The notes: generated by a model from the letters alone, not told the origin. Shown: positions 10,356-47,111, counted from the first letter of the stretch. The stretch is 64,000 nucleotides of DNA from Planktothrix tepida (GCF_904830955.1 NZ_LR882970.1); one strand, 5' to 3'. Program-made: numbers and translations.

Positions 10356-10714
10356 CCCTTTCATTTAAGATAAATTCACAATAAAAATGCACTCTTCCAG
10401 CCATGAGAGCGCATTTCCAGAGCAGATAGTATGATAGACCAATCATTTCTTTTATAAGGTAAACTATCATCGTTGAGCCTTTCCTCTCTCAATAGCATGA
10501 CTTCCATCTCATCCTAATCCTATTGTTGGGCGCAGACAAAAGCATTGTTAATAATATTTTCTCGAAGTTGGGTATCACTGAGAATTGCTAATATTTCTTC
10601 ACCAAAAGAAAAAGATAGGTTTCAGAAAGATAAGTCTAAAGATTGATGTGCGTCTACCTGTGGAACTGAAACAATATTTCTATAGCCACAAATTAATGAA
10701 CCTTAACAAAAAAA

Positions 10715-29559: not shown

Positions 29560-30015
29560 TCGCTTATACCATAAAAGCCTTACAAGGATTAAAAATCAAA
29601 CAACTTGGGCAACAAAAATATATCAACCGCCTTCAAGAATTAGGGCGGAGTGTTCAACGGCACAGCAACTTTTGGTCTTGTCAATATGGGCTTTTATGGA
29701 TAGCTGGAATGGAAATTTGGGCAGACTTGGCTCAACAATTAATGAGAACTAAATGCAATAAGATCCCTTTTTTTCAAAGAGGTCAGAGAGCTATGATGTT
29801 GATTCAGTCTACCTTCTAGCTTCTTTGTCACCCCGTCAGCCGCCCAAACTCTTAAACACCATCTTCCCGATATTTGCCATTATTTTATTAATCGAACAAC
29901 CAGTGGAGTCATGGAGGGATTAAACAACCGGATCAAATTAATTCTTCGTCAAAGCTATGGCTTCAAAAATTTTGAGATGATGCGTGAAAAGCTACTAGCT
30001 TGTCTTTCTTTATAA
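29560..30015 (+). pseudogene. degenerate C-terminal remnant of an ISL3-family transposase
   Basis: The terminal frame encodes ...INRTTSGVMEGLNNRIKLILRQSYGFKNFEMMREKLLACLSL*, which is the ISL3 hallmark (...TNA.TEG.NNKIK..KR.AYGF.NF...). The upstream part is in another frame with stops. No intact ORF. Confidence 0.55.
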
Positions 30016-30054
30016 GATTTACTTATCACCATAGGTACAGGAGAACCTAAATCC

Positions 30055-31422
30055 ATGAACATAACACTCCCAAATAGGTACGACTTCCTTTCTCGCTTCT
30101 TTAGACTAGCTTTCATCAATGTCCTGTCCAATATTATGGAGCCTCTGGCTGGGACAATCAGCTTAGCGTTCCTGGGCCATCTAACCGAAATCCATCACTT
30201 AGCAGGGGTTACTCTCTCTACCACTCTGTTTAACTTCACCTATTTCATTGTGAACTTTTTACGCATGGGAACCACTGGAGTGACAGCGCAAGCGGTGGGA
30301 CGGGATGACACCGAAGATATGCTGCTGGTGGGACTGCGTAATGCTTTAATCGGACTGGGTATAGGCGGACTGCTTCTGTTGTTGCAATATCCTCTGCAAC
30401 AGTTGTGGTTTGGTCTAATGAGCGTGACTCCAGAGGTTAAGGCTTCAGGTATTGACTATTTCAATGCCCGAATTTGGGGAGCGCCTGCGGTTGTCGTCAA
30501 TTTTGTTCTGATTGGGTGGTTTCTCGGACGAGAAATGAGTGGCTTTGTGTTGCTGATGACCCTAGTAGGCAATGCGGCTAATGTTGTGTTCGACTACCTG
30601 TTTATTGTCCGTTGGGACTGGGCAAGCACGGGGGCGGGACTGTCTCAGGCAATTAGCCAGTATCTGGTGTTAGTGGTAGGCATAATTTTGGCGAGTCTCA
30701 ATATCGAGTGGAAGGAAGCTCGAAGTGCAGCCAGAAAGTTTTGGGATGCCAGCGCATTTAAAGCGACTTTTACCCTGAACGGCAACCTCTTTATCAGGTC
30801 TTCGGCTAATATGTTCGTCGCCACCTTTTTCACGGCTCTAAGTTCTGCAATGGGGACAACTATCCTGGCTGAAAATGCCTTACTCTTACAAGTAATAATG
30901 CTTTCCAGTTACTTTTTTGAAGGAATAGGATTTGCTACCGAGACTTTGGGTGGAAATTTTAAAGGCAAACAAACAATAGATCGATTGTTGCCCCTATTGC
31001 AGGTGGCAGTCTCAACCAGCCTACTGGCGGCATTAATTTGTTCTGGAGTGTCTATCCTGTTCCCGAATACAGTCTTTGGGTTATTAACCAATCATAGTGA
31101 AGTGAAGGAACTTGTTAAAATCTATGTTTCTTGGCTACTCTCCAGACTGGGATTTAGTTCAATTGCTATGATACTGGATGGATACTTTGCTGGTTTAGCC
31201 CAAGGGCATTTTATACGTAACGCTACTTTAAGCGGAGCAATGTTTGGATTTGCGCCCTTAGCAGTCATGGCATGGCATTATCAGAGCAATCATCTCTTAT
31301 GGTTGGCTCTATCAATGTTCGCAGCAATAAGAGTGGTAGTGCTTGCGGTGCAGGTGTCCGCAACATTGAAAGATGAACCTCTGGTTGTCGCCGAGCAACT
31401 GCCTGATTCACGCATAGGTTGA
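30055..31422 (+). CDS. MATE-family efflux transporter (DinF-like)
   Basis: 455 aa with 12 predicted TM segments and a MATE N-terminal signature. Confidence 0.85.
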   Translation: MNITLPNRYDFLSRFFRLAFINVLSNIMEPLAGTISLAFLGHLTEIHHLAGVTLSTTLFNFTYFIVNFLRMGTTGVTAQAVGRDDTEDMLLVGLRNALIGLGIGGLLLLLQYPLQQLWFGLMSVTPEVKASGIDYFNARIWGAPAVVVNFVLIGWFLGREMSGFVLLMTLVGNAANVVFDYLFIVRWDWASTGAGLSQAISQYLVLVVGIILASLNIEWKEARSAARKFWDASAFKATFTLNGNLFIRSSANMFVATFFTALSSAMGTTILAENALLLQVIMLSSYFFEGIGFATETLGGNFKGKQTIDRLLPLLQVAVSTSLLAALICSGVSILFPNTVFGLLTNHSEVKELVKIYVSWLLSRLGFSSIAMILDGYFAGLAQGHFIRNATLSGAMFGFAPLAVMAWHYQSNHLLWLALSMFAAIRVVVLAVQVSATLKDEPLVVAEQLPDSRIG

Positions 31423-31536
31423 GCCGTCAACGTTTGCCTGTTTAAAACTTCAGCTAATTTGGTCAAAGTAGATTTTGATGGCGTAGCCTGTAAAAATCTA
31501 ACCTAGCAGGTAGTTAGAAATTGGCAGCAACAACTG

Positions 31537-31809
31537 TTACAGTCTGCTGATAACGAAAGATTTGATAACGTTAACTGTTTCAAAATTCTCCAGTAAGAAT
31601 TCTTCTGGATTTAAGGTAATACCAAACTTTTCTTCCAGAAAGCTAGCCAGTCGAAAAATGCCCAGCGAGTCAACCAGTCCTTCTTCGATTATGGACAAAT
31701 CATTTGATAAAACCATATCGGGTCTATCGTACATGAAATTTTGGATAATATGCTCTTTAATTATCTGTTCTATCTGTGCTTCCGTGTACTTGTTTACGGC
31801 GGTCATTAT
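31537..31809 (-). CDS. stand-alone acyl/peptidyl carrier protein
   Basis: 90 aa from ATG 31809 (AAGGAG RBS 8 nt upstream). The phosphopantetheine attachment motif is LVDSLGIFRL. The ORF track begins at an upstream alternative start. Confidence 0.75.
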   Translation of the reverse strand: MMTAVNKYTEAQIEQIIKEHIIQNFMYDRPDMVLSNDLSIIEEGLVDSLGIFRLASFLEEKFGITLNPEEFLLENFETVNVIKSFVISRL

Positions 31810-31825
31810 CAATCTCCTTATTGAA

Positions 31826-33445
31826 CTATTTTGAATTCTCTTGAAGTTCTTCGGTACGCAGTAAGGTTTTGTCAATCTTGCCTGTAGGGGTTTTAGGTAA
31901 CCCAGAACGAAACTCAATTAGCTCCGGTATCATGTATTTAGGTAGACGCTGTGCACAAAAATATTCTACATCGCTCTTTTTGAGATTATTTCCATCCTGT
32001 GTGGCAATTATAGCCTTGATTTTCTTGCCGATTTCCTCATCGGGAATAGCAATTACGGCTGCTTCAACAATTGCAGGATGAGCGTATAGCGTCGTTTCAA
32101 TTTCATCCAGTTCAATTCGGTATCCTCGGCTCTTAATCTGGTTATCGCGACGACCTAAATAAATATAGTTGCCATCAGAATTGAGTTTCACTAAATCCCC
32201 AGTTCGGTAAACTTTTTCTAACCATCCGCAACCTGGTACGGGGAAAGGTGTGAGAGCCTGTTGGGTTTTGTCATGATTTCCCCAGTATCCTTTCATTAAG
32301 GAGGGGCTACGCACGTAAAGTTCCCCAACTTCTCCTGGTTTGGTAATTTCCTTGTGTTCATTAACGGCAAATACCTCTGTGTTGGCACAAGCTTTGCCAA
32401 TGGGCAGAGTTCTTACCTCTTCAGGAGGAATTTCCTTTACCGGATAGTAAGTACAGACATTTGTTTCTGTGGGTCCGTAGAGATTATAGTAGTTGGCTTG
32501 CGGTAGCAACTCCATAAGTTGACGCAGGTATTTAACTGGGAACACTTCCCCCGCAAACAAAATCGTCCGAATATGGGGAAATTGAGCCTGATGCAGGTTG
32601 CCGTAAACAATTAGCTGTCTCAGCACTGAAGGGACAGAATACCAGATGGTAATTTGTTGTTCTTCAATAAACTGAGCGAGGTTTCTGGGAAACACTGAGA
32701 GTTCCGGTGGTACCAGAATGACAGTCGCACCTGCTTTGATAGTGGTGAAGATATCAAAGATGGAAAGATCGAAATGAAGTGGGGCGTGATTGGAAACGCG
32801 ATCGCTCCTTTGTACCTGAAAGCAATCATAAGCCCAGTTGACAAAGGTTAGAGAAGCTCGATGGCTAATCATCACCCCTTTGGGAGTGCCAGTGGAGCCG
32901 GATGTGTAGAGAATGTAGGCAAGATCGTCTTCAATCAAATTGCTGGGTGGTGATGGGTTTGGCGGTGCTTGCAACACCTCTTGCCAAGACACCATCCTGA
33001 CATTTGACAGATTACCCGTGTCCTGTTGTGCTTCATCGTCAGCGAGTACCAGGCACTGGACACCAGAGGTGTTTGGCAGTTGAAGGCTGGCTATCTTTTT
33101 ATGGGTACTCACCAAAGCCTTCATCTGGCAATTGTCAATGATAAAGCCTATCCGCTTCGCAGGAGCTAAGGGGTCTAGGGGAACGTAGACAGATCCAGCT
33201 TTAAGGATACCGAAAATGGCAATGACTGCTTCAATGGATTTGTTCACGTAAATGCCGACGCGATCGCCTCTTGATATCCCGCAACTTATCAAGAGGTGGG
33301 CTAACTGATTAGAAACTTGGTCTAACTCCCGATACGTGATGCTGCTATTTTTATAGATTACAGCTTCCCGGTCTGGATATTGCTTGGCACTAATTTCTAA
33401 AAGCTGTTGCAGTAGATACGGCATGGGTTTTGGGCTGTCTTCCAT
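31826..33445 (-). CDS. stand-alone adenylation enzyme (amino acid-AMP ligase; AnaC/PltF-like)
   Basis: A-domain cores are present: A3 YTSGSTGTPKGV, A5 YGPTE, A7 YRTGDL, A8 GRRDNQIKSRGYRIELDEIE, A10 PKTPTGKIDK. No C or T domain. Start set at ATG 33445 (MEDSPKPMPYLLQQLLE...). Confidence 0.9.
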   Translation of the reverse strand: MEDSPKPMPYLLQQLLEISAKQYPDREAVIYKNSSITYRELDQVSNQLAHLLISCGISRGDRVGIYVNKSIEAVIAIFGILKAGSVYVPLDPLAPAKRIGFIIDNCQMKALVSTHKKIASLQLPNTSGVQCLVLADDEAQQDTGNLSNVRMVSWQEVLQAPPNPSPPSNLIEDDLAYILYTSGSTGTPKGVMISHRASLTFVNWAYDCFQVQRSDRVSNHAPLHFDLSIFDIFTTIKAGATVILVPPELSVFPRNLAQFIEEQQITIWYSVPSVLRQLIVYGNLHQAQFPHIRTILFAGEVFPVKYLRQLMELLPQANYYNLYGPTETNVCTYYPVKEIPPEEVRTLPIGKACANTEVFAVNEHKEITKPGEVGELYVRSPSLMKGYWGNHDKTQQALTPFPVPGCGWLEKVYRTGDLVKLNSDGNYIYLGRRDNQIKSRGYRIELDEIETTLYAHPAIVEAAVIAIPDEEIGKKIKAIIATQDGNNLKKSDVEYFCAQRLPKYMIPELIEFRSGLPKTPTGKIDKTLLRTEELQENSK

Positions 33446-33557
33446 AGAATGTTCAAACGATAATACAGCGAGATGAATTCGTACCAATTCTTCGTAGCGC
33501 GCCGCAGCGTTGTCTCGTAATCTCGCAAATGCTCTCGCGTAAACAAAAAATCACCCT

Positions 33558-34703
33558 CTATAATCCCATAAATTGGGCAATTATTTGGTACTGAATCTCA
33601 GAGGTTCCTGAATAAAGCTTGCTCCCTAACGCATCCCTTAATTCTCGTTCTAGTTCTAACTCAGTTAGATAGCCATAACCACCATGAATCTGAATTGCAT
33701 CAAGGCAGGACTGCACCCAAGATTCACTAATATAAAGTTTTGCCATTGCCGCTTCCATAATCGCCGTTTTTTTATTATTTTTTAACCATCCTACTTTATA
33801 CAGCAGCGCTCTAGCTGTTTCAAGTCGCATCTTCATGTCAACAATTTTGCTGCTAACTAACTGAAATTTTCCAATCGATTGACCAAATTGCTGGCGCTTC
33901 CTAGCATATTGAATGCAGCTTTCTAACAGACGTTCCATAGTCCCGATCGCACTGGCAAGAATGAATCCTCGCTCCCATTCCATACTGTGATTAAAGATAG
34001 CAAGTCCCGAACCCTCTTGACCAAGACGATTTTCACTCGGCACTTCACAATTTTCTAGGAACAGTTCACCTAACTGAGTCGTTCTTAAACCCATTTTGGA
34101 AATTTTACGATTGATCGCGACTCCGGCAAAATCTTTTTCGACGATAAATCCAGTAATTCCCCGTTTTCCTTTTTCGGGAGCGACATTCGCAAATACAATG
34201 TAAAGGTCAGCAACTGGACCATTTGTGACCCAATTCTTAACACCATTTAAGATGTACTTGTCTCCCTGTATTTTGGCAGTAGTCTTAAGATTGTAAATAT
34301 CCGAACCTGCTTCTGGTTCACTTGCCCCATGAGCGCCAATGAATTCACCGCTACAGAGTTTGGGGAGATACTTTTGTTTTTGAGCTTCGGTGCCAAAGGT
34401 TAAAATCGGTATTTCGCCAGCCCATATATGAGCGTTGATGGCAAAGATTAGACCATTGTCTTTACAACCATAACCTAAAGCTTCCAAGGCACAAATCGTT
34501 GTAAGAATATCTGTCCCAGTTCCCCCATAATGTTCAGGAATTGGCAGACCGATCAGACCAAATTTCCCACATTTTTCCCAACTTTCTCGGTTAAATTCTT
34601 CTCGCCAATCTAGGTCAATTAGATTTGATTGCAACTCTTGTTGGGCGAATTTAACAATCTTCTCTCTAAACTGAATTTGTTCCTCTGTCCATGAAAAGTC
34701 CAT
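33558..34703 (-). CDS. acyl-CoA dehydrogenase-family flavoprotein (candidate aminoacyl-S-carrier protein oxidase, AnaB/PltE-like)
   Basis: 381-aa ACAD fold (MDFSWTEEQ...). The catalytic-base region is YSGTSEIQ. It lies directly upstream of the A enzyme and carrier protein. Confidence 0.8.
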   Translation of the reverse strand: MDFSWTEEQIQFREKIVKFAQQELQSNLIDLDWREEFNRESWEKCGKFGLIGLPIPEHYGGTGTDILTTICALEALGYGCKDNGLIFAINAHIWAGEIPILTFGTEAQKQKYLPKLCSGEFIGAHGASEPEAGSDIYNLKTTAKIQGDKYILNGVKNWVTNGPVADLYIVFANVAPEKGKRGITGFIVEKDFAGVAINRKISKMGLRTTQLGELFLENCEVPSENRLGQEGSGLAIFNHSMEWERGFILASAIGTMERLLESCIQYARKRQQFGQSIGKFQLVSSKIVDMKMRLETARALLYKVGWLKNNKKTAIMEAAMAKLYISESWVQSCLDAIQIHGGYGYLTELELERELRDALGSKLYSGTSEIQYQIIAQFMGL

Positions 34704-34713
34704 TTTTCAAAGC

Positions 34714-36495
34714 TCATTGTGGTGATGAATGTATTCTTATATTGGAATCTGGGTGTCGTTGCTCTATTAACAATTTTCCGATTTCTGAAAGACACTGCTT
34801 GACAAGAGCGATGAAATCTTCCGGCTGTAGATGTTTACTCGTTACAGCAAAGGTAATCTTGTTGCGATCGATGACATAGCCGATTCCATAGTCGCGACAT
34901 GGACTGGGGCAGGCTATCTCTACACCCATTTTATTACTTAGGGCAGAAGCGGAGAAGCTTGGGTCTAAGATAACTTCTTCAAAGGTTTTATCTTGAAAAA
35001 TATCGAGAACACTGCTGCCTTTATAGCGAGCTAAGTTATAAAGCGCATAAAGGTGCATGACCACTCCCTGCCCGTTTTTAGTGTTAAACACTCGCCATAA
35101 ATGAGCGTTAACAGCACGTTTTAGAGTCCGATATCGCACTTCGTCTGAAGCTCCCTCAGTAAAGGCTTGAATGAGTTCTACAGATTCGGGTGTAACTACT
35201 AAGGCGTAGTCGTGCCGCCCGTACCGGAAGGTTCTGTTGTGTACAGCTTGCCAAGCGCTAGTAGTAATCTTACCATGCAGGCGAGTGTAAGCAATCTGTA
35301 GCGACAGGAGAAACACAGCATCAGCAATTAAACCATGTTGCTGGATAAAGTCTGACCCAAATTCGTCGAAAATTATTATCCCCATCTGAATTTGTTCGCT
35401 CAGACGCTCTGCATCTGTTAATGCTTGCGCTACTTCTTCTTTGAGTGTCCGATCTAACTTCCAGCACAGTCGCTGTGGTGGTTCGAGTTCGACTGAACTG
35501 GAGGATGTAAGGGATTCTTCAAGGGGTTCAAGCTCCCGGTTGACCTCGCTTATCAACCGTGCTACCGGATAACCATCGACATTACTGTGTTCAATTGTTA
35601 CAGCGAACTGACCCTCAGAGTTAAAAACGAGCCGAATAGGTTTATCGAACCATCGGTTTCGCGCACCATCTCCAGTAAAGGCAGTTCTTGCTAGCCTTTC
35701 CAAATCGGGAGGCGTTATTTCGTCTAAACAGACAACAAATAAGGCGCTATCCAATAGTTCTAGAGAGCAAGCGTTTTCTGCATCTAGGTTCGTGAGGTAG
35801 GAGCGAACTGTTGCCCACTGTTCTCTGGGGAGAGATGTCAGCACTCCCACAGGAAGTTCCCCTGGATGAGTATTTTCCAGAATCCAATCAATTTGCTGTG
35901 CTACAGCTTCCACCGACGGTAACGTATCCCCTGGGAGCAACTTTAAGACGTAAAACGTATCCCGTCGGATGACCACAATATGCTCAGAATTTTTCGCCCT
36001 TTGAAAGCTGTCACATTTGATTCCAGGAATTCGCGCACTGCCAAACAAATTGTCATACTGAGCCATACAAAGGGGAGGTTTGTTTCGTTGAAATACATCG
36101 CGATCTGGCTCTAGTTCCCGATATTTGATTTTCAGGTGGAATTGGAGGGTATTAAAAATTATGATGGCGACAATGCGGGTAAAGGAATATTTCGAGGTTG
36201 TCAAGACGGGCGAAGCCACCCCTGTGCTTCTCATATTTAGTTGTGAAGACCGCATTTCTAAATAGGTTTCCTCTTTAAATTGTTGTAAATAGTTAGTATT
36301 AGTTGAGCGGTCAATCATCTCCAATTGCTTCTGTAGTTCGACTCCACTCCCTTGTTGAAATTCCCTTACGGCGGTCTTAGTTCGCTCTAATTCTGTGTCA
36401 CTCAACAGCGGTGTTACCATCTCGATATAACGAGCGCAGGTGTCTGAGAGTTTGGGCAAAGGTAGTTTTGGAAGAGACTCTTGGAATTGATACAT
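34714..36495 (-). CDS. choline/carnitine O-acyltransferase-family protein
   Basis: The N-terminal LPKLPLPKLSDTCARYIEMV resembles the family signature LP+LPVP.L..T...Y. The catalytic His block is IEHSNVDGY (family motif EHSxxDG). 593 aa. Confidence 0.7.
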   Translation of the reverse strand: MYQFQESLPKLPLPKLSDTCARYIEMVTPLLSDTELERTKTAVREFQQGSGVELQKQLEMIDRSTNTNYLQQFKEETYLEMRSSQLNMRSTGVASPVLTTSKYSFTRIVAIIIFNTLQFHLKIKYRELEPDRDVFQRNKPPLCMAQYDNLFGSARIPGIKCDSFQRAKNSEHIVVIRRDTFYVLKLLPGDTLPSVEAVAQQIDWILENTHPGELPVGVLTSLPREQWATVRSYLTNLDAENACSLELLDSALFVVCLDEITPPDLERLARTAFTGDGARNRWFDKPIRLVFNSEGQFAVTIEHSNVDGYPVARLISEVNRELEPLEESLTSSSSVELEPPQRLCWKLDRTLKEEVAQALTDAERLSEQIQMGIIIFDEFGSDFIQQHGLIADAVFLLSLQIAYTRLHGKITTSAWQAVHNRTFRYGRHDYALVVTPESVELIQAFTEGASDEVRYRTLKRAVNAHLWRVFNTKNGQGVVMHLYALYNLARYKGSSVLDIFQDKTFEEVILDPSFSASALSNKMGVEIACPSPCRDYGIGYVIDRNKITFAVTSKHLQPEDFIALVKQCLSEIGKLLIEQRHPDSNIRIHSSPQ

Positions 36496-36520
36496 CTACT
36501 TACACTTATAGCTAAGATTA

Positions 36521-37492
36521 TCAGAATTGTGACATAGAAATCAAAATTTTTCTCGAACCAAAAAACGGTCTTCGTCCATGACAAACTAACATATTATCTA
36601 TGACTAGAACATCACCCTCCCGCCAAGGAAAAACAACAGTTTGTTTACCAATAGTTTCTCTAATTTCATCTAGCATTGAAACATCAATTGGAGTATTGTC
36701 GCCAAAGCAAGCATAGTGAGGGAGTTCCTCTTCGTTACCGTCAAAATAAAACATCATAGCTTCGTAGATATTTTTAGGAAGAGTAGATGGATGAAATAGA
36801 TCGGCTTGATTAAACCAAACTTGTTCATCTGTACGAGGATGAGTTGCAATAGCAGGACGAATCTGGCTTAATCGCAATCCTCCATCCTTCTTCCACTCAA
36901 AATCCATACCAGCTTTTCTATTATGCTCTTCTACTAGGGACTTATCTGAAGTTTTAAAAGCATCTTGCCATGAAACTCCCATGCCATTACTACTAGGTAA
37001 ATTGCGGATATACTTCACTTGTTTAAGTGTGAACTTTTCCACAATCTTTGGGTTAAGACTTTTGAGGATTTGGCGACTATCAGCAATTGGTGTTTCTCCG
37101 CCCTCTTTAGGCGCAGTAATACAGCAAAAATAGAGTTGGTCTGGCCATTGGCTAGAGTAGGATAACTCATTATGCAAACTAATGGAGTATTCAGCTGGAT
37201 ATTCAGTTGAAGTATAAATACCACTAGCTAGTTGGGTTCGGGGAGAATTTCCATCAACATAATCTATTAAATTACCTGAAATAGATTTAACGAATTTTTC
37301 AAAAGCTAAGATTGTATTGACATCAAAACCTCGAAAAAGAATCGCTCCGTGTTTCAAAATTTTGTTTGATAAAAGTTCACTATTATCTTTGTACCATGAA
37401 AGGAGATAATCAAAATTAGACGATTCGCGTTTTGTGTCAGGTTCTACTAGCAAGGGTAGATTGTGATTCGAGTCGAAAATTCCTATTTTCAT
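36521..37492 (-). CDS. Fe(II)/2-oxoglutarate-dependent dioxygenase, TauD/TfdA, SyrP or gamma-butyrobetaine-hydroxylase-like
   Basis: HxE facial-triad motif in ISLHNELSY. Distal His and Arg in LVCHGRRPFFG. 323 aa. Confidence 0.75.
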   Translation of the reverse strand: MKIGIFDSNHNLPLLVEPDTKRESSNFDYLLSWYKDNSELLSNKILKHGAILFRGFDVNTILAFEKFVKSISGNLIDYVDGNSPRTQLASGIYTSTEYPAEYSISLHNELSYSSQWPDQLYFCCITAPKEGGETPIADSRQILKSLNPKIVEKFTLKQVKYIRNLPSSNGMGVSWQDAFKTSDKSLVEEHNRKAGMDFEWKKDGGLRLSQIRPAIATHPRTDEQVWFNQADLFHPSTLPKNIYEAMMFYFDGNEEELPHYACFGDNTPIDVSMLDEIRETIGKQTVVFPWREGDVLVIDNMLVCHGRRPFFGSRKILISMSQF

Positions 37493-37566
37493 AATGATTG
37501 AGCTTTTTTAGTCAAATGAAAGAGCTTGTTAATTACCTCAAAAATTTCCACTTAACAGACCAATTA

Positions 37567-40500
37567 CTAAGCCAATGGAGCCTGTGTTTGCTTTAGGCAA
37601 GAGAGAAGTTGTGTGGCTAACACCTGTACGTGCGGCTGTTGCATCATGGTGCTATGGTTCCCTGGAACAACATGAATGTCTATAGTAGAAGAAAACTCGT
37701 TCCAGCCCAAAGCAGGTTCTTTTCGCCTTTGTTTCAACTCTTCTGTATCACCCTCAAATACATCAACCTCACTAGAACGGAAAAGAGTAATGGGAGCTTG
37801 TTGCAGCCCCGAAGGCAAATAAGCACGATGAGCTTTCAGGGACGCAATGTATACTTGCACTAGCCCCCGTACTAACCCTATTCCCGCATCAGGGGGTAGC
37901 AAATTGACCCGTATCAACCGTTCTTTGAGATAGTTCAATTGCTCCTCCTGAGATAGGGAAGCAAGAGTTTCTTTAGATACCTCCAACTTGAGGGAGAACA
38001 TATATTCAATATAGCTGGCAAAATCAAAAAGATATGCCACCTCATCTTCATCAGAATAATTCGGCTTATTAGCAACAATTGGCGCAACAACGTCAATAAT
38101 TGCAAGTAGAGCGACCTCATGCCCCTGTTTGAGCAACTGAGTTGCCATCTCAAAGGCAACTACACCTCCAAACGAATGCCCTCCCAGCAGGTACGGACCA
38201 GAGGGCTGAACTGTCTGTATTGCTTCAATATAGTAGGTGGCTATCTCTTCCAACTGTGTAAAAGGCTCTGATTCGCCATCCAGTCCCCGTGCTTGCAGAC
38301 CGTAGAAGGGTTGCTCAGATCCAAGATGACGCGCTAGCTCATATAAGTAAATCACATTTCCCCCAACTCCAGGCACAAAGAAGAAAGGTCGCTTCTCGGT
38401 GCCAGACTGAATTGCTACCAAAGGAGACCAAGGCAAGGAATGAGTTTCGGATCGAAGACAACTAGCTAGCTGTTCGATAGTTGGGCTAGAGAAAAGCGTT
38501 GCTATGGGCAGATTTTTCCCAAAATGCCGCGAAATTTGAGCCATTAAGAGTACAGCTAAAAGAGAATGACCTCCGAAAGTAAAGAAGTTATCCTTCATTC
38601 CAACAGTCGGAAGCTTCAAAACCTCTGACCAAATTTGCTGTAGTTGCTGTTCAACTGTGTCACGGGGAGGGACAAAGCCCATTGAGTTACTTAATTCCGT
38701 ATCTGGTGTCTCCAAGGCGCGACGGTCTACCTTACCATTGGGGGTGAGAGGTAAAGAAGAAAGCATCACAAAGGCTCCCGGCACCATGTAGTCTGGGAGC
38801 TTTTGTTGGAGGAAGTGCCGCAGTTCAATGGTGGCAGGAGGTTCATGGTTGGGAACAACATAAGCTACCAGTCGTTTGTTATCTGGTTGGTCATCCCTTG
38901 CTAAAACTACTGTCTCCCGTAACTCTGGGTGTTGAGCTAGCGCTGCTTCGATTTCTCCGAGTTCAATACGGAAACCGCGAATCTTCACTTGACGATCCAG
39001 CCGACCAAGGAACTCAATGTTACCGTCTGGAAGGTAGCGGGCATTGTCCCCGGTTTTGTAGAGGCGTGTTCCTTCTTCTTGGCTAAAGGGGTTGGGGATG
39101 AATTTTTCTTTTGTCAATTCTGGGCTGTTGAGGTAGCCTCGCGCCAGTCCAAAACCACCAATATGCACTTCCCCAGGTACACCAACAGGGACTGGTTGCA
39201 GATGGCAGTCGAGCAGATAAATTTGTGTGTTGGTGATCGGGCGACCGATAGGGACAATTTTGATTGGCTCATCCTGTTGTGCCGGAATTGGATAAGTGGC
39301 AACAATTCCACAAGTTTCAGTTTGACCAAACATATTGATTAATCGTGCTTTGTGCTGAAAACCAAACGTCCACTGAGTAGGAAGATCGGACAGCAGCGGT
39401 TCGCTCGCCGACACAATTAAACGCAGTTTGTTATCTAACAGTGCTTGTTTCGTAACAGGTTCTAAGCTAGCAAGTGTATGAATGCAGTTACGCCAATAAG
39501 AGGGGACAATATCAATAACTGTCACACTATGTTGTTTAATTGTCGTAAATAGTGATTGTGGGTCTTTTCTCTGTTCAGAAGTTGCAATTTTGACAGTTGC
39601 CCCACTAGCCAGAGGCACGATCAACTGTCTGACAGAAGATGAGAAAGCAATCGATGCGGTGTGCAAATATACATCTTCTGCTGTGATATTTAGCACTTGA
39701 CTCATTGCTTGGGCATAGTGACACAAATTAGCGTGTGTCACCTGTACTCCCTTTGGCTTTCCCGTTGAGCCAGAGGTATAAATGACATAGGCTAAATTAG
39801 CAACTGTTGCTGTTTGGTTTAAATTTTCTTCTGAGTGTTGAGCAATGAGATGCCTATCTGTATCTAAGCAAACAACTTGTGCCGTATGTTCAGGCAGTTC
39901 TGTTATCAAGCACTCCTGAGTCAACAACACCTTTGGTTGTGAATTTTGCAACATGAACGCTAAGCGCTCTTTGGGATAGGATGGGTCTAAAGGCACATAA
40001 GCCCCTCCAGTTTTGAGGATGCCAAGTAGACTCACTACCATCTCTAAGGAGCGATCAACGTAGATGCCCACCAGCACTTCTGGCTCCACACCTAGAGTTT
40101 TCAAGTGATGTGCTATTCTGTTCGCCCGTTGGTTCAAATCTTGGTAGGTCAGTTGCTCCCCTTCAAAAACCACCGCAATAGCATCAGGCGATCGCTCCAC
40201 CTGTTCCTCAAATAACTGGTGGATACACTTATTGAAGGGATACTCTTTTGTGGCGTTGTTCCACTCTACTAATAGCTGGTGTCGCTCTGGCTCTGTGAGC
40301 AATGGCAATTCTGAAACCTTCTGTTGAGGATTAGCAACAATTCCCTCTAGTAAGGTCTGAAAATGTTGAGCCATGCGATTGATCGTACTGGCATCAAACA
40401 AGTCAGTATTGTATTCCCACGTCCCGATTAGTCCAGAGTCGCTGTTGACGAAAGCTACAAACAAATCCAACTTCGCCGTAGCTGTTTCTACCGCTACTGG

Positions 40501-41820
40501 ACTCACCGTTAAGCCTTCCATGTCTATCTGCATCGCTGGGTAAAGCACAAACCTCACTTGGAAATACGGTGTGTAGCTTAAGTTACGCGCTGGCTGCAAT
40601 TGTTCTAATAACTTTTCAAACGGTAGGTCATGATGAGCGTATGCTCCCAAAGCCACGTCCCGGACTCTTGAGAGTAGCTCCTCAAAACTCGGATTACCTG
40701 ATATATCAGTCCGCAGAACCAACGTATTGAGAAACAATCCAATCAATCCCTGAAGCTCACGGCGCTCCCGGCCTGCGTAAGGCGTGCCTACGCAAATATC
40801 GGTCTGCTCTGTATAACGGTAAAGCAATGTGAAGAGCGCCGCCAACAGCGTCATAAACAGAGTAACTCCTTTGCGTTGACTTAAAATCATCAAAGCCTCT
40901 GTTAGTTCTTTTGAGAGTGCTTGTCGGTGACACGCCCCTCGAAACGTTTGAGTTGCTTTTCGCACTCGGTCAGTTGGCAGTTCCAATATTTCTGGCGCAC
41001 TCCTCAGTTGTTGCTTCCAATAAGCAAGTTGAGACTCTAGTATGTCTTCCTGTAACCACTGCCGCTGCCAAACAGCAAAGTCGGCGTACTGAATCGGTAG
41101 CTCTGGTAGCTCTGGTAGCAAGTCATTGCAGTAGGCTGTGTAGAAAGCTGCTAACTCTTTGACCAATACGCCCTCTGAAGGAGCATCCCAGACAATGTGA
41201 TGTATTGTTAGTAACAAGATATGTTCTGTCGGTGTTAGCTTTAGCACAGAAGCTTGAATCAACCCAGAGCTACTGAGGTCAAAGGGTTGCTGGATTTGTG
41301 CCCTGGCTTTTAGCCCCCAAGCAATTTCTCTTTCACTCTCAGGTAGCTCACTCAAATCTATGACTTGCACACTCAAGGTCAAGCCAAGAGCAATAACCTG
41401 AACGGGTTGCCCCTCAACCGTTGTGAAGTTGGTGCGTAAGACCTCGTGGCGTTGAATTATCTTGTTGAGGCTTTTCTCTAAAGCGACAACGTTGAGAGAA
41501 CCATTAAGTCGCAGAGCTAGTGGTACGTTGTAGAAGGGGTTAGTTGGCTCCAACTGGCTCAAGAACCACAGTCCTTCTTGGGCAAAAGACAGAGGCAAGT
41601 TACCAGTTCGCGAAACTCTTAGAAGGGGTAGGTCAGTATCATTGGCGATCGCATTGCTGTTCTGTAGCAACTTTACAAGTTCTGCCTTATGCAATGCCAG
41701 TAAATTACGTACCTCTGGTGTCAGTACCTTCTTTGGTGCCCGCACGCGCAACTGGTCGTCTTCGACCCACAACTTCACACCAGCTAGGGCGAGTTCAGCT
41801 ACAAATTGCTTAAGGTTCAT
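37567..41820 (-). CDS. single-module non-ribosomal peptide synthetase: N-terminal TubC-type docking domain, C, A, T and TE
   Basis: The N-terminus (MNLKQFVAELALAGVKLWVEDDQLRVRAPKKVLTPEVRNLLALHKAELVKLL) matches the TubC-type docking-domain pattern. The C domain has HHIVWDA. The A domain has LAYVIYTSGSTGKPKGV, NMFGQTE, YKTGD and GRLDRQVKIRGFRIELGEIE. The T domain has FFTFGGHSLLAV. The TE has GHSFGGVVAFEMA (GxSxG). Confidence 0.95.
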   Translation of the reverse strand: MNLKQFVAELALAGVKLWVEDDQLRVRAPKKVLTPEVRNLLALHKAELVKLLQNSNAIANDTDLPLLRVSRTGNLPLSFAQEGLWFLSQLEPTNPFYNVPLALRLNGSLNVVALEKSLNKIIQRHEVLRTNFTTVEGQPVQVIALGLTLSVQVIDLSELPESEREIAWGLKARAQIQQPFDLSSSGLIQASVLKLTPTEHILLLTIHHIVWDAPSEGVLVKELAAFYTAYCNDLLPELPELPIQYADFAVWQRQWLQEDILESQLAYWKQQLRSAPEILELPTDRVRKATQTFRGACHRQALSKELTEALMILSQRKGVTLFMTLLAALFTLLYRYTEQTDICVGTPYAGRERRELQGLIGLFLNTLVLRTDISGNPSFEELLSRVRDVALGAYAHHDLPFEKLLEQLQPARNLSYTPYFQVRFVLYPAMQIDMEGLTVSPVAVETATAKLDLFVAFVNSDSGLIGTWEYNTDLFDASTINRMAQHFQTLLEGIVANPQQKVSELPLLTEPERHQLLVEWNNATKEYPFNKCIHQLFEEQVERSPDAIAVVFEGEQLTYQDLNQRANRIAHHLKTLGVEPEVLVGIYVDRSLEMVVSLLGILKTGGAYVPLDPSYPKERLAFMLQNSQPKVLLTQECLITELPEHTAQVVCLDTDRHLIAQHSEENLNQTATVANLAYVIYTSGSTGKPKGVQVTHANLCHYAQAMSQVLNITAEDVYLHTASIAFSSSVRQLIVPLASGATVKIATSEQRKDPQSLFTTIKQHSVTVIDIVPSYWRNCIHTLASLEPVTKQALLDNKLRLIVSASEPLLSDLPTQWTFGFQHKARLINMFGQTETCGIVATYPIPAQQDEPIKIVPIGRPITNTQIYLLDCHLQPVPVGVPGEVHIGGFGLARGYLNSPELTKEKFIPNPFSQEEGTRLYKTGDNARYLPDGNIEFLGRLDRQVKIRGFRIELGEIEAALAQHPELRETVVLARDDQPDNKRLVAYVVPNHEPPATIELRHFLQQKLPDYMVPGAFVMLSSLPLTPNGKVDRRALETPDTELSNSMGFVPPRDTVEQQLQQIWSEVLKLPTVGMKDNFFTFGGHSLLAVLLMAQISRHFGKNLPIATLFSSPTIEQLASCLRSETHSLPWSPLVAIQSGTEKRPFFFVPGVGGNVIYLYELARHLGSEQPFYGLQARGLDGESEPFTQLEEIATYYIEAIQTVQPSGPYLLGGHSFGGVVAFEMATQLLKQGHEVALLAIIDVVAPIVANKPNYSDEDEVAYLFDFASYIEYMFSLKLEVSKETLASLSQEEQLNYLKERLIRVNLLPPDAGIGLVRGLVQVYIASLKAHRAYLPSGLQQAPITLFRSSEVDVFEGDTEELKQRRKEPALGWNEFSSTIDIHVVPGNHSTMMQQPHVQVLATQLLSCLKQTQAPLA

Positions 41821-42070
41821 AGAGCGATTTCCTTCATACTGTCATCGAGTTCAGTGGATGGGGATGCTGACTGGAGCAGAGCCAATGCCCATTGCTCTAG
41901 CATTAGCTCTGCTAGAGAGGAAATGCTCACACCCTCCATAATTTTCATAACAGGCATCACCCCCGACTTGAACCAGGGCTGTTTCAAAGTCGGGGGGAAA
42001 AGAGTAAAGAAATAGCGATCGCTAGCTGATAAAATCAAAAGCGGTCGCTGATTTTTTTGTAAAAATAAAG

Positions 42071-43270
42071 ATGCTAACAATTCTAATAGAAAAACTGAAA
42101 AAAGTCAAGGATTACCGGAAAGCCCAGGGAACAAGGCATCCAATATGGCTAGTATTATTAATAGTCATTTTGGGGCTAATGTCGAGAAATTTAGGGTACA
42201 GAGAACTCGAAAATTTTGCGAAAATCAATCAATACCAACTGAGTCAAGTTTTAAAAATCAAGCTAGAAAAACTGCCATCATACTCAACAATAAGAAGAGT
42301 AATACAAGGAGTAGATTGGTTAAATTTAATTGAGATATTTAATGAATGGGCTACTTGTAATTATCCGCATCAAGAAGAACTAGATTGGTTAGCAGTAGAT
42401 GGAAAAAGCCTGAGAAGCACTCTCAAAGATTTTGGAGATAAATCCCAAAATTTTGTGATGATTGTTGCACTGTTTAGTCAAAGAACAGGATGCGTATTAA
42501 ACCTGAGAAAGATGGAGAACAAAAAAGAATCAGAAATCAGCCAAGCCCAAAAGATAGTAAGGGATTGCCAGTTAAAAAGAAAAGTAATAACCTTTGATGC
42601 GTTGCACTGTAATCAGAAAACTGCTGCCCTAGTTATTGAGAGCGGGAATGATTATATAATGGCTTTAAAGAAAAATCAAAAAAAGTTATATGAGCAAGTT
42701 GAAGCGGTAATAAAAAGTGAAAATCCTGTGAGTGTAGATGTGACTCATGAACACAGCCATGGCAGAAAAGTGACTCGAAAAGTTTCCATTTATCAAGTCA
42801 ATAACAACTTTCACAAAGGCTGGAAACATCTGAAACTTGTGATTCAGATAGAAAGAAGTGGCAACAGAGGAAAAAAACCCTATCAAGAAAAAGTATATTA
42901 TATCAGTAGTGCCGTTAACGAAGCTCAAACCTTAGCTCAAATCATTAAAGGACATTGGGGGATTGAGAATCAATACCATTGGGTAAAAGATGTAATTTTT
43001 CAAGAAGATAAAAGCCGAATTCGTAACTTTCAAGCAGCTAGCAACTTTTCAACTCTTAAAACTCTGGTAATCAATCTTTTCAGAAGTTGGGGTTTTGTAT
43101 CAATAACAGAAGGACAACTTTTTCGCCTCATTCCTAAAAATTGGGGACTCAATTTGACTCCCCAATTTGGGAAAATGAAACAGCCCTGGGAATTTGAAGG
43201 GGGTTCCTGTCCCGATGCCATTATATCGTTTATCTCGTTCTGCCTTAAAACCGGGTATGAACCGATTTGA
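42071..43270 (+). mobile_element. ISAs1-family (IS4/IS5 superfamily, DDE) transposase gene, apparently intact
   Basis: 399 aa. The N-terminal DYRKAQGTRHPIWLVLLIVILGLMSRNLGYRELENFAK is typical of ISAs1/H-repeat transposases. The C-terminal DDE_Tnp_1 region carries the E in HWGIENQYHWVKDV. Terminal IRs were not identified by eye. Confidence 0.75.
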
Positions 43271-43424: not shown

Positions 43425-43955
43425 TCAATTGTTTATTCTATCTCTCAATTTAAAGTGAAAACGTCCTGCGTAGAATATCGCACTGATTAACACATTAAGG
43501 GTTAGTTTAAGCCAAGCCCCTACTACGCCGAAAGACATAACGCTTGTTAGTAATAATGAAACAGGTATCATTACAAACCAACCGCCTAATAAACTGATAT
43601 TTCGCACATAGAAAGTATCATTTAATCCCACCAAAGCGGCTCGGTAAATCATAAAAATAGCATCGCCAGCTTGGTAAAAAATATGAATACGCAGAATGGT
43701 AGTAGTGGTTGCTATGACTTCAGTGTCGTTACTGAATATTCCGATGACTAACGGCGAAAAAACTAGGGCGAGAATGCTAACTCCTTCCATCATTATAACT
43801 GCCCAGCAGGCGGCAAGGGATGATTCTTCTTTTGCGCCAACTGCGTCGTTACGCGCTATCGCATGGGCGACTTGAACGGTTGTCATACTGGCAGCACCTG
43901 CGCCAAAGATGTAACCAATATCTTTAATTCTCATCCCGATAGTGTGTGCCGCCAT
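43425..43955 (-). pseudogene. C-terminal half of a second MATE efflux transporter, N-terminal half missing
   Basis: 176 aa corresponding to MATE TM8-12. Upstream coding sequence is replaced by an IS5-type remnant. Confidence 0.7.
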
Positions 43956-44036: not shown

Positions 44037-44941
44037 TTAGAAGGGTAAATCAGTTTTTTTTTGAGGAAAGAAGTTAACCGATAAGTTATGATAATCAATG
44101 ACTCGAAAAAAGTAATTGACTAAAAAAATTGACACCAAAATCTGCCTAAGAATGGCAGAGAGATTCATGACTAAAAAAGTAATAGCAATTGCCGTTTCGG
44201 AAGTATGAGCTAGTTTATTCATAATCCGATTCAGGCTAAATCTTCTTTTCCCTTGCCCAAATTTGCCCTCAATTGAATTCCGAATCTTTTCATCGTCTAA
44301 CGCCTGCTTCTTAGTAGCTTCACTCAGATTTACTGGGGGTCTCCCTAACGGAGGGCCACTGATTCTAATTCCTCTTTCTTTACACCAAGCTCGGTTGTCT
44401 CTAGTTCGGTAAATTTTATCTACATGGACTGACTCAGGATAATACCCCGTATATTCTTTAAAAGCCTCTATTTGTGCTTTTAATATATTGCAGTTGTTTT
44501 TTAACTGCCTTTCGTCTTTTTTGTCGGGAAGGTCGGCGTTGTTTGGCTATTTCTAGGTAGTCTTTTCTGGCTTTCTTTCTATAAGTTCTAGGTTTCTTCT
44601 CTGATTTATCCTGACGGCTTTTATACAAACTATCAATGATTTTTTCCGTTTGTTCTCTGGCTTGATTTAAAATTTTTAAGTCCGTCGGATCTGTCACTTA
44701 TCCCTAATTTTTCTTTAATGATTAAGGCTCCCAATGCCATTCTAAATCTTTTGGCTGGTGCTCCCATCACAGATGAGAATAATTCTTCATATTCTGCTTC
44801 AAATTCTTCCCAGGGTATCACTTTTGCCATGATGACCCAGCGATTCTCTTCCGACAGCTTTCCCTCAAACGGCAGTTTGAAATCTTCTGCTGGTGTCCTT
44901 GGTTGTTCGTCTTTACGGTACATTTTCCCCGACTCCTGCAA
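44037..44941 (-). mobile_element. IS5-family transposase, fragmented by frameshifts and internally deleted (non-functional)
   Basis: Three consecutive ORF fragments. The InsH-N-like head is MYRKDEQPRTPAEDFKLPFEGKL...IMAKVIPWEEFE...MGAPAKRFRMALGALIIKEKLGISDR. The tail is ...RISGPPLGRP... and (V)EGKFGQGKRRFSLNRIMNKLAHTSETAIAITFLVMNL. Confidence 0.7.
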
Positions 44942-44951: not shown

Positions 44952-47111
44952 CTATTTTACACCCCTCCCTTGCACCTGATTCATTTTTTCTTGTCTTCTC
45001 CTCCCCTCTGTTCTGGCTTTTCGCCTTTTTTCAGCAAGCCCTAAATAACGACCAACCCCAACATATCGGAAATATTCTAGCTTGCCACCGGAGTGACTGC
45101 GGCGATCGCTCGTATATCGAAAGCCGAGGATATTGCCCACTGGTGACGAAGGGACAATGGCTAAATAGTCTCGTGGTGGGCGATTGACCAGGGATAAGCT
45201 AGTGTCGTGAAAGTCGATCACCTGCGATCGCATTAAAGCACTGAGGTGGTCAAGCACAAAGCTTAACCGATTCGCCAGAACTGTCACCAAGATGGCGAAC
45301 TGTAAATGGCGCGTCGCTTCCTCAAACTGGGTTTTATCGGTCAGAGAAATATTCACAGCCTCTAGCCATCGCTTCAACCAGTCCCCGATTTCCGCTAATG
45401 CAACTTGATCACTTTCACCACTGAGTAAGGTAAACGCCAAATCGGATAGTTCTCCTCCTTTGCGACGATTGAGAGGAGCTTGCAAAAATCTCTCAAGGGT
45501 CTGCATCAGTTGTTTGCGACGCTGACGTTCTTCAACTGGAGGTAAACCCGCTTCAATGCGTTTTTGTCGTTGTTGACTGCGTTCACTGCGAGTCAGTTTA
45601 GGTTGGGTTTGCTGATTATCTGTTTCTAAGGGAGGTTCTAGAATATCTCGAATAATATGGGCAAAGACTGAACGACCTGTAAACGGAGTTGAGCCTAACC
45701 ATTGCACCAGTTTCGGTTGATTGTGAAGTTTAGGCAGAATAATATCAGTGGCAATTTGAGCAAAATCATTCGCTTTCTTGGCATCTGCAATCAGTTTAGC
45801 TGCCAGAGGGCGACGATCAGAATTATAAATTGCATTGGCGAATTTAATTCCTAATTGATTTAATAAGGAATTTCCAGAAGCATCCACTAACACTTCATCA
45901 GGTGCAAACGCTTCATCAAACTGCACTTGGACTCGATCTGCTTCATCAATAAAAAGAAAGTGGCATTCACGGTAAACGGCTTCAGCAAACGTTAGTTTTT
46001 CTTCTAACAATTGGCGGGGAATGGGAGTATGAATCAAACTCGCTGGGGTTAATACCCAAACTAAAGATTGTCCAATGTCTCGTTCTAATTGATGATGAGG
46101 GCATTGGTAATAAAAAGGGCAGGTGCTATATTTATTATTTTCAGTTTCTTCTTCCTCACCTTCATCATCATCACTAGGACTATTCTGATTTATACTGTTC
46201 ACTTTTTGGTAAAGATTATGGCAAGGTTCGGAACCAAATTCCCATTTTTCCTCCGCTTGAACTAATGCTAATAAGGGGCAGATTGGATTAAACCAACGCC
46301 ATGCCGGATGGGTAGCTCCTTGATAAATTTCTTCTCCTTTTGTGGATAGAATAGGTTCATAAACTTTTTCTAATTGTTGAAAGCGATCGCTTCCTAGGAT
46401 AGGAGTTGCTGGAATGCCTAAACCATGGGAAAATAAAGAAGCGAGTCGTACCTGTGCCACCACATCATTCACAATTAAAGCACAGCGATATCCTTGTTTA
46501 GCGAGAGAGTAAATCAGAATTTCAAGCAAGGTCGATTTACCCACATTCAATAAACCGACGATATGGAGCAATTTGTCTAGTTTGAGTTCTTGATTTTGAT
46601 CACAGAAATTATCAGTTGATTCGTTATAAATTCGCCAGTTAATTTCTTTAAGTCGGCTATCATAATTTTCTGGTTCATATCCGCATTCAGCTAATTTAGC
46701 GTCCATTTCCCTGGCTGAACTGAGCAACTCCTCTTTAGTGATGGTTTGAGCAAAATTGTTTTGTTGGCGAATGTGATTAAACGCTACATTTCGCGAGAGA
46801 TCAAGATTAGCAACGGCTTCGGGAATATTGATAGGAACTTCTACGGGTGCATGACCTTTGTTAGAAATTTTTGCATACCAATAGCCCGTAGAGGCAAGTT
46901 TAATTTTTCGTTTGCTATGAGAGGGTGTTGTTGATAAGGTTTCTTTATAAAAAGAATGGCGTTGAGGGTGAATTGTGGTCGGAATTAAGACAGGGCTATC
47001 GTTATCAGGAAAACTGATTGCTCTGTCTGGAGTGGTGGGTTGTGGCAAAACTTTAACGCTGCGACGGCTACAAGAGACCTTGAGGAAAGGTGGCAAGATT
47101 TTGGTTTCCAA
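44952..47111 (-). CDS. large P-loop NTPase of unknown family
   Basis: Walker A is LHIVGLLNVGKSTLLEIL, Walker B is FLFIDEADRVQ, and there is a Cys/His cluster CPFYYQCPHH. The N-terminal about 140 codons of the tracked ORF are low-complexity and overlap plus-strand ExeA-like fragments. A likelier start is near MDAKLAECGYE (about 46700). Confidence 0.5.
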   Translation of the reverse strand: METKILPPFLKVSCSRRSVKVLPQPTTPDRAISFPDNDSPVLIPTTIHPQRHSFYKETLSTTPSHSKRKIKLASTGYWYAKISNKGHAPVEVPINIPEAVANLDLSRNVAFNHIRQQNNFAQTITKEELLSSAREMDAKLAECGYEPENYDSRLKEINWRIYNESTDNFCDQNQELKLDKLLHIVGLLNVGKSTLLEILIYSLAKQGYRCALIVNDVVAQVRLASLFSHGLGIPATPILGSDRFQQLEKVYEPILSTKGEEIYQGATHPAWRWFNPICPLLALVQAEEKWEFGSEPCHNLYQKVNSINQNSPSDDDEGEEEETENNKYSTCPFYYQCPHHQLERDIGQSLVWVLTPASLIHTPIPRQLLEEKLTFAEAVYRECHFLFIDEADRVQVQFDEAFAPDEVLVDASGNSLLNQLGIKFANAIYNSDRRPLAAKLIADAKKANDFAQIATDIILPKLHNQPKLVQWLGSTPFTGRSVFAHIIRDILEPPLETDNQQTQPKLTRSERSQQRQKRIEAGLPPVEERQRRKQLMQTLERFLQAPLNRRKGGELSDLAFTLLSGESDQVALAEIGDWLKRWLEAVNISLTDKTQFEEATRHLQFAILVTVLANRLSFVLDHLSALMRSQVIDFHDTSLSLVNRPPRDYLAIVPSSPVGNILGFRYTSDRRSHSGGKLEYFRYVGVGRYLGLAEKRRKARTEGRRRQEKMNQVQGRGVK

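Follow-up and report, generated by a model that had tools for sequence, protein, structure and literature searches.

A predicted type II cassette for the loading and oxidation of proline, similar to AnaB/AnaC/AnaD, in a mosaic operon of Planktothrix tepida

The closest described relatives of the genes considered here act on proline while it is bound to a carrier protein (CP). In anatoxin biosynthesis AnaC loads proline on AnaD and AnaB oxidizes it to pyrroline-5-carboxyl-AnaD (PMC3252866, PMC6053186), whereas RedW, PltE and Bmp3 carry out a four-electron oxidation and go on to pyrrole, a point beyond that at which AnaB stops (PMC10849742). The order from anaB to anaG is kept in all known anatoxin (ana) clusters, with the polyketide synthase (PKS) genes anaE, anaF and anaG placed directly after anaD (PMC6053186, PMC3252866). 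A stretch of 64,000 nucleotides from Planktothrix tepida (GCF_904830955.1, NZ_LR882970.1), hereafter the window, contains at 31537-34703 three adjacent genes that resemble these systems and encode a flavoprotein with the acyl-CoA dehydrogenase (ACAD) fold, a stand-alone adenylation (A) enzyme and a stand-alone CP. The three very probably form a type II, that is free-standing, unit for proline loading and oxidation of the AnaB/AnaC/AnaD kind. They make up the downstream half of an operon of mosaic origin.

The span 31537-34703 corresponds exactly to the last three of six minus-strand open reading frames (ORFs) that follow one another head to tail and encode a nonribosomal peptide synthetase (NRPS), a TauD-family dioxygenase, a Carn_acyltransf enzyme, the ACAD, the A enzyme and the CP (Table 1). 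A sequence-only reading of this DNA had proposed that the order ACAD, A, CP mirrors anaB-anaC-anaD, and three minus-strand genes do lie in that order at these positions. The gaps between them, all on one strand, measure 112 nt from ACAD to A and 19 nt from A to CP, and the ACAD gene starts 10 nt past the Carn_acyltransf stop on their common strand. For the A enzyme the mechanically called ORF extends to 33487 and the homologues start at the Met of 33424; 33445 is used here. The ACAD is encoded identically in two Planktothrix assemblies, GCA_900009145.1 (LN889812.1) and GCA_904830925.1 (LR882967.1), the second of which is P. pseudagardhii No713 (PMC9366434). None of the six ORFs is interrupted, and in these two assemblies (loci L001 and L002) the products show 99-100% identity.

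Comparison with the anatoxin genes was made against a Kamptonema locus (L093) that contains a cyclase-like gene, a thioesterase, ACAD, A and CP genes and two PKS genes, with a MatE gene upstream; the closest ana relative is that of Kamptonema/Oscillatoria PCC 6506, and the N-terminus of the L093 ACAD is the sequence of PDB entry 4IRN. Order and strand are the same as in the window, the gaps are similarly short, and the window proteins are 66% (ACAD), 62% (A enzyme) and 50% (CP) identical to AnaB, AnaC and AnaD respectively, with the same A-enzyme code and the catalytic glutamate Glu244 kept. The three genes are homologous to these counterparts, identities of 50-66% over full-length proteins ruling out chance resemblance. 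The MatE product of the ana locus is in turn 50% identical to the MATE transporter of the window.

The A enzyme had been described as stand-alone, and its only Pfam domains are indeed the two listed in Table 1, with no condensation (C) or thiolation (T) domain. Its specificity code was read from a MAFFT alignment that comprised the enzyme, the 120 homologues closest to it and, as anchor, a fragment of GrsA, which reproduces the canonical DAWTIAAICK. The code obtained, in GrsA numbering, is DLFYLALVCK (D235, L236, F239, Y278, L299, A301, L322, V330, C331 and K517). Residues previously aligned by hand (D235-L236-F239...L299-A301-L322-V330-C331) are recovered in full, and position 278, which had been left open, is Tyr. 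The resemblance that had been suggested to a D-L-(L/F)-Y-L-A-L-V-C-K pattern of proline A domains also holds, the alignment of PltF (PDB 6O6E) giving DLLYLALVC, in agreement at eight of the nine code positions read, with Leu in place of Phe at 239 and K517 outside that query. The same ten-residue code is found in AnaC of Kamptonema (P0068, L093), in AnaC of Cylindrospermum (P0088) and in 105 of these 120 homologues. When the specificity region was compared with PDB sequences, PltF was by far the best match (135 bits, the next being 91). The enzyme passes the amino-acid-adenylation model TIGR01733 (392 bits against a cut-off of 317), and the core motifs A3 (YTSGSTGTPKG), A5 (NLYGPTE), A7 (YRTGD), A8 (GRRDNQIKSRGYRIE) and A10 (PTGKIDK) are readable in its translation. 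These features support its assignment as a putative proline-specific stand-alone adenylation enzyme.

The affinities of the flavoprotein are equally pointed. Its best PDB match is AnaB (4IRN) at 590 bits, every other chain scoring 342 bits or less, and Bmp3 (6CXT) and a solved L-prolyl-PCP (peptidyl carrier protein) dehydrogenase (5ZW0) are also strong matches. Among NCBIfam models the highest scores are given by the prolyl-PCP dehydrogenases PigA (447 bits) and RedW (400.6 bits), some 80-125 bits over the next ACAD model; no AnaB-specific model is among its NCBIfam matches. The window ACAD and AnaB share a glutamate at a common position in the motif SMEWE244RG, which is the catalytic residue, Glu244 in the numbering of AnaB. 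The role of the catalytic glutamate has been described, and it is conserved in AnaB and Bmp3 (PMC10849742). The assignment of the ACAD as a candidate prolyl-carrier-protein dehydrogenase is thus supported.

The third protein had been noted as a carrier of 90 residues with a DSLG motif; the motif is present and the length is 89 residues. Ser47, within VDSLG, aligns with the DSM/DSL of AnaD and other CPs, and the PP-binding model (PF00550) gives 24.2 bits, above its cut-off of 20.8. Outside the near-identical loci, the closest CP (64% identity) is that of Nostoc sp. CHAB 5844, whose gene is flanked by an AMP-ligase on one side and a Carn_acyltransf homologue on the other.

The earlier suggestion of a proline-type loading and oxidation trio like anaBCD is therefore supported by the match of the ACAD to the AnaB structure, by a code identical to that of AnaC and by the resemblance of the CP to AnaD. 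Proline loading and FAD-dependent oxidation on the CP are highly probable, given the strong homology to assayed enzymes. The A enzyme would activate L-proline to prolyl-AMP and thioesterify the prolyl group to the phosphopantetheine that Ser47 of the CP carries, and the FAD-dependent ACAD, with Glu244 as base, would dehydrogenate the tethered prolyl group. A two-electron oxidation like that of AnaB would yield 1-pyrroline-5-carboxyl-S-CP, and a four-electron oxidation like that of PltE, RedW and Bmp3 would yield pyrrole-2-carboxyl-S-CP. This oxidized prolyl thioester might then be handed to the acyltransferase, for release onto an alcohol or amine other than carnitine, or be taken up by the NRPS at its C domain, and the MATE pump may export the product.

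Between pyrroline and pyrrole the sequence cannot decide, and we know of no sequence determinant that tells pyrroline-forming from pyrrole-forming dehydrogenases; at 68 alignment positions AnaB is split from the window ACAD together with its counterparts in halogenase clusters. The nearest relatives appear to tilt the balance slightly towards pyrrole, because the nearest ACAD relatives adjoin halogenases of the carrier-protein type. These relatives are found in uncharacterized cyanobacterial clusters of ACAD, halogenase and A genes, known from metagenomes and metagenome-assembled genomes (L003, L006-L009 and L094), whose products are 73-80% (A), 83-87% (ACAD) and 48-52% (CP) identical to those of the window and whose A enzymes have the same code. 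Several of the clusters also carry a second halogenase, a free C domain, a DUF3179 gene and ProX, and their halogenases match the FADH2-dependent, carrier-protein-dependent class of CmlS, PltA, Mpy16 and Bmp2. They probably represent halogenated pyrrole pathways, although to our knowledge none has a named product. ProX/OpuAC was considered as a sign of a betaine acceptor in these clusters and the idea was dropped, since the protein matches the glycine-betaine/L-proline binding ProX and a role in proline supply is simpler. In contrast to the window, where the CP gene adjoins the A gene, these clusters encode their CP several kb away; genes for a free-standing C domain, DUF3179 and ProX are all missing from the window.

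Characterized pyrrole cassettes belong to the same class, combining a proline-specific stand-alone A enzyme, a CP and an ACAD-fold dehydrogenase, as in PltE/PltF/PltL of pyoluteorin, RedW/RedM/RedO, PigA/PigI/PigG and Bmp3/Bmp4/Bmp1. In pyrrole-antibiotic clusters the CP gene is usually set apart, whereas the three window genes are contiguous and are accompanied in the window by neither a halogenase nor a pyrrole-consuming synthase. More specifically, two halogenases taken from the most closely related clusters had no significant tblastn match in the window, and the 112-nt gap between ACAD and A holds no halogenase remnant. A halopyrrole pathway of the pyoluteorin or bmp type was rejected for these reasons.

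Table 1. Positions of the cassette genes and of the features next to them in the window; functional names are predictions.
Feature	Position	Strand	Domains and remarks
ACAD-fold flavoprotein, AnaB-like prolyl-carrier-protein dehydrogenase, 381 aa	33558..34703	minus	Pfam Acyl-CoA_dh_N/M/1, all three present
Stand-alone adenylation (A) enzyme, AnaC/PltF-like L-proline--[carrier protein] ligase, 539 aa	31826..33445	minus	Pfam AMP-binding and AMP-binding_C
Stand-alone carrier protein (CP), AnaD-like, 89 aa, phosphopantetheine Ser47 in DSLG	31537..31806	minus	Pfam PP-binding
MATE efflux transporter	30055..31422	plus	Pfam MatE; convergent with CP gene
Carn_acyltransf (carnitine/choline-acyltransferase-fold) enzyme, 593 aa	34714..36495	minus	Pfam Carn_acyltransf 451 bits, full length
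TauD/TfdA-family Fe(II)/2-oxoglutarate dioxygenase, 323 aa	36521..37492	minus	Pfam TauD
Terminal NRPS module, TubC_N docking-C-A-T-TE, 1417 aa	37567..41820	minus	Pfam domains
Type I PKS 3'-end remnant, last 45 codons (ACP end and C-terminal docking tail)	41817..41957	minus	82% identity to Microcoleus PKS residues 2158-2202
DDE transposase (insertion sequence element)	42071..43270	plus	Pfam DDE_Tnp_1 and DDE_Tnp_1_assoc

The genes upstream of the cassette have a separate history. On nucleotide comparison, the upstream half of the operon derives from a Microcoleus-type NRPS-PKS-NRPS cluster, the first two synthases of which are gone here next to a transposase. Positions 41956..34788 are 93% identical over 7,170 bp to the Microcoleus contig L090, which carries the NRPS, TauD and Carn_acyltransf genes. 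The intact Microcoleus cluster (L176) encodes an NRPS (932 residues, C-A-T), a PKS (2203 residues), the NRPS, TauD, the Carn_acyltransf enzyme and a methyltransferase, and is without the ACAD-A-CP triad; at its PKS/NRPS junction stop and start codons overlap as ATGA. The homology of the window begins 136 bp upstream of the NRPS start, the last 45 PKS residues are still encoded, and the ATGA overlap is kept. Immediately beyond this PKS stub, where the first NRPS and the PKS sit in Microcoleus, are the transposase and an unrelated MatE fragment (43425-43955, minus strand, 176 residues). The fragment is 25% identical to the intact MATE transporter, is represented by two short ORFs in strain No713, and is apparently what is left of another transporter. 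At its other end the homology stops at 34788, about 74 nt before the Carn_acyltransf stop, and the window protein consequently has a different C-terminal tail, its last 25 or so codons differing from those of the Microcoleus orthologue. The methyltransferase gene that trails the Microcoleus cluster is absent here.

A stretch of about 150 bp (44154-44301) has 74% identity to sequence that follows closely on the Microcoleus cluster at its downstream side (L090, 12545-12693) and could be either a rearrangement trace or a short repeat element. The GC content, 0.43-0.48 over most of 30001-42000 compared with 0.36-0.40 in the flanks, would fit horizontal acquisition. Convincing terminal inverted repeats were not seen at the boundaries of the insertion sequence (IS), there is no tRNA in the window that could have served as an integration site, and a scan for promoters and terminators returned counts at or below the shuffled expectation. 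With 93% nucleotide identity to the donor type and both breakpoints visible, the locus offers a dated case of cluster remodelling. The possibility that the triad is an ancestral part of the NRPS-TauD-Carn_acyltransf cluster was rejected, given its absence from the intact Microcoleus cluster and from the vicinity of Carn_acyltransf in 160 loci other than the two Planktothrix ones.

A metagenome contig (L175) contains an A-CP-MATE block that is 91% identical at the nucleotide level to window positions 33443..30050, with a different gene upstream of A. Comparison of the A, CP and MATE genes with this contig yields dN/dS values of 0.11-0.23 (0.11-0.14 for A and CP), indicative of purifying selection. 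The A, CP and MATE genes travel as a block. The ACAD-A-CP proline cassette is a mobile and widely reused module, known from the clusters for anatoxin, from those with halogenases and from XrtA exopolysaccharide loci, to which the neighbourhood of a Carn_acyltransf enzyme is now added.

The nature of this neighbourhood bears on what may become of the oxidized prolyl group. The NRPS is 92% identical in amino acid sequence to the NRPS encoded after the PKS in Microcoleus. Its A domain (about residues 520-1050) lacks Asp235, the residue that binds the alpha-amino group, with the code SSRDVAMIVK and the A5 motif NMFGQTET, in which the Microcoleus orthologue is identical; because Asp235 is missing, the substrate of this domain is probably not an alpha-amino acid. 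The TauD protein, also 92% identical to its Microcoleus orthologue, has At3g21360 and 9YUT as its best PDB matches. In the acyltransferase, the Carn_acyltransf model (PF00755) is matched over positions 1-568 of 574, and the catalytic residues E302 and H303, which correspond to the EHS motif of CPT2, do not vary among 16 bacterial homologues. The alignment with CPT2 places Trp, Ala, His and Met at the four carnitine-carboxylate contacts, which are Tyr, Ser, Thr and Arg in the CrAT and CPT2 structures (CrAT Y452/S454/T465/R518). The window acyltransferase accordingly has the fold and the catalytic residues of its family and is unlikely to be a carnitine-using member.

This acyltransferase belongs to a family of bacterial Carn_acyltransf proteins with about 55 members, most of them from cyanobacteria (40-88% identity; L010-L037 and L095-L112), which stands apart from the eukaryotic enzymes (about 30%). 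In the neighbourhoods examined, members of this family are encoded beside NRPS/PKS genes or beside stand-alone A and CP genes, and their carnitine-contact residues are replaced. The Carn_acyltransf homologues of Desulfonema and of a metagenome contig (L025 and L100) have CP-like ORFs nearby, with an adjoining AMP-ligase-like match. A search of the literature for cyanobacterial carnitine acyltransferases in gene clusters found nothing relevant. According to a passage in PMC8582187, which cites Hang et al. 2017, the cAT domain of a fungal highly reducing PKS esterifies carrier-bound polyketides onto alcohols. That domain likewise has a Carn_acyltransf fold tied to a thiotemplate assembly line and is a precedent for off-loading from a CP; the window enzyme, in contrast, is free-standing and bacterial, is about 30% identical to eukaryotic members and has altered carnitine contacts. 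By analogy, off-loading of a CP-bound acyl group by the window acyltransferase is plausible, because of this fungal precedent and of the contexts in Nostoc sp. CHAB 5844, Desulfonema and the metagenome contig.

A more specific proposal is that the juxtaposition is functional and embodies a new release logic, in which the acyltransferase would esterify the pyrrole- or pyrroline-2-carboxyl group from the CP onto a hydroxyl that TauD had installed on the non-alpha-amino substrate of the NRPS. This is offered as a speculative and rather unlikely scheme. If it were true, the cyanobacterial Carn_acyltransf family of about 55 members would consist of trans-acting NRPS/PKS off-loading enzymes, a class so far unrecognized, and Planktothrix would have rebuilt the pathway with a proline cassette in place of its NRPS-PKS front end. 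Should the pieces cooperate at all, the locus would provide a handle on uncharacterized bacterial carnitine-acyltransferase-like enzymes.

Several observations weigh against the reading of the three genes as an AnaB/AnaC/AnaD-like unit at work within this operon. The ACAD scores given above fall under the curated equivalog cut-offs (447 against 500 for PigA and 400.6 against 650 for RedW), and the protein is therefore not an orthologue of PigA or RedW. The code DLFYLALVCK marks a broad family in which the only assayed branches are those of AnaC and PltF, and the same triad and code occur inside an XrtA exopolysaccharide locus. The NRPS keeps its TubC_N docking domain even though the PKS partner is gone from the locus. 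Among 160 genome and metagenome loci with Carn_acyltransf, an AnaB- or AnaC-like gene stands beside it in none other than the two Planktothrix assemblies (L001 and L002). The pairing of triad and Carn_acyltransf is recent, since the sole instances are these two assemblies with the very same sequence, and is without comparative support for a functional coupling. Finally, dN/dS is about 0.3 for the NRPS, TauD and Carn_acyltransf genes, higher than for A and CP; with values well below 1 throughout, all six genes are under purifying selection.

These points lend some weight to the best surviving alternative, namely that an IS-mediated rearrangement set an intact-looking cassette beside a decapitated NRPS cluster, leaving a stranded relic whose genes may still be expressed but whose parts do not cooperate and which has no defined product. 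Such an origin would accord with a PKS stub and a transposase lying exactly at the upstream homology breakpoint, with a docking domain retained for a lost partner, with the recombination junction within the 3' end of the Carn_acyltransf gene, with the restriction of the combination to two Planktothrix assemblies and with the dN/dS of about 0.3 in the NRPS part; Planktothrix lineage 3 is, moreover, IS-rich and has uncharacterized NRPS/PKS genes (PMC9366434). It is opposed by the six intact ORFs with products nearly invariant in both assemblies, by dN/dS values well below 1 for every gene, by the operon-like appearance of the 10-nt and 19-nt one-strand gaps, and by the NRPS core motifs HHxxxD, GGHSL and GHSFGG, which are readable in the translation. 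The dN/dS pattern by itself neither proves nor excludes a relic, and on balance this explanation is doubtful.

A second alternative, suggested by the XrtA loci, is that the cassette would serve modification of the cell surface or of an exopolysaccharide, as its relatives there presumably do, and would merely adjoin the NRPS genes. Two metagenome contigs with XrtA/PEP-CTERM exopolysaccharide loci (L177, at 8828-11882, and L178) contain ACAD, A and CP genes in the same order, with a proline-type code and the glutamate present in the motif EWER, and their products are 71, 69 and 54% identical to those of the window, compared with the 66, 62 and 50% of AnaBCD. The genes that flank the triad in L177 and L178 encode an XrtA-system amidotransferase and a deacetylase, both above their NCBIfam cut-offs, and the second-best NCBIfam match of the window A enzyme is the exosortase-associated ligase model TIGR03098; its score of 379 bits, however, is far under the cut-off of 592. 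The XrtA loci encode an XrtA amidotransferase, a polysaccharide deacetylase, Wzy and a glycosyltransferase, none of which is found in the window, nor do the other L177 genes have a tblastn match there. The immediate neighbours of the window cassette are instead a MATE pump and secondary-metabolite enzymes, and a surface role is very improbable.

An equally slight probability attaches to the suggestion that the substrate of the A enzyme is not proline but another cyclic imino acid, such as methylproline, pipecolate or dehydroproline. The code by itself leaves room for close analogues of proline, in a family known from assays of its AnaC and PltF branches only. Nevertheless, all ten code residues are those of AnaC, an L-proline loader (PMC3252866), and no gene for the biosynthesis of a modified proline was seen among the genes of the window.

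Least credible is a use of the anatoxin type, with (S)-1-pyrroline-5-carboxyl-S-CP as a PKS starter: the anaB-anaC-anaD order, the homologous MATE transporter, the code shared with AnaC and the position of AnaB as the best solved homologue of the ACAD all point that way, yet the use is largely refuted for this locus, where AnaE, AnaA and AnaI (the cyclase) of L093 have no tblastn match in the 64-kb window, the only PKS trace is the 45-codon stub of a different, Microcoleus-type PKS, and the ACAD and A enzyme are closer to their homologues in halogenase clusters and XrtA loci than to AnaB and AnaC. Membership in an anatoxin cluster was rejected on the tblastn results. The genes next to the cassette are those for an NRPS, a TauD dioxygenase and a Carn_acyltransf enzyme instead of AnaE/F/G, AnaA and AnaI, and where PKS genes follow anaD, the window CP gene is followed by the convergent MATE gene. 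As a whole, the triad is nearer in sequence to the cassettes outside ana clusters than to AnaBCD. The order ACAD-A-CP is a trait of the cassette family and is not diagnostic of anatoxin, because the triad of the XrtA loci has it too and is closer to the window than AnaBCD. Matches to anaB, anaC and anaD in genomes or metagenomes should accordingly not be read as toxin potential when the PKS genes are absent; Planktothrix lineage 3 possesses close homologues of the anatoxin starter genes without the anatoxin pathway.

The remainder of the window has other contents. Its left flank is housekeeping DNA. A complete type I restriction-modification system (1285-8236, plus strand), made up of HsdM, a PIN-domain gene, HsdS and HsdR, is adjoined by the 3' portion of an ftsH-like gene, with an ORF that starts at base 52. 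On the other side of the operon, a minus-strand ORF of 719 residues (44952-47111) matches no Pfam family with confidence and has a weak match to the NTPase family nSTAND3 only. It is succeeded by GNAT and sulfotransferase genes (47489-49089, minus strand) and, at 49166-63721 on the same strand, by genes for two giant secreted-type proteins, one of 2913 residues with DUF4347 and RTX repeats and the other of 1849 residues with FG-GAP, cadherin-like and RTX repeats.

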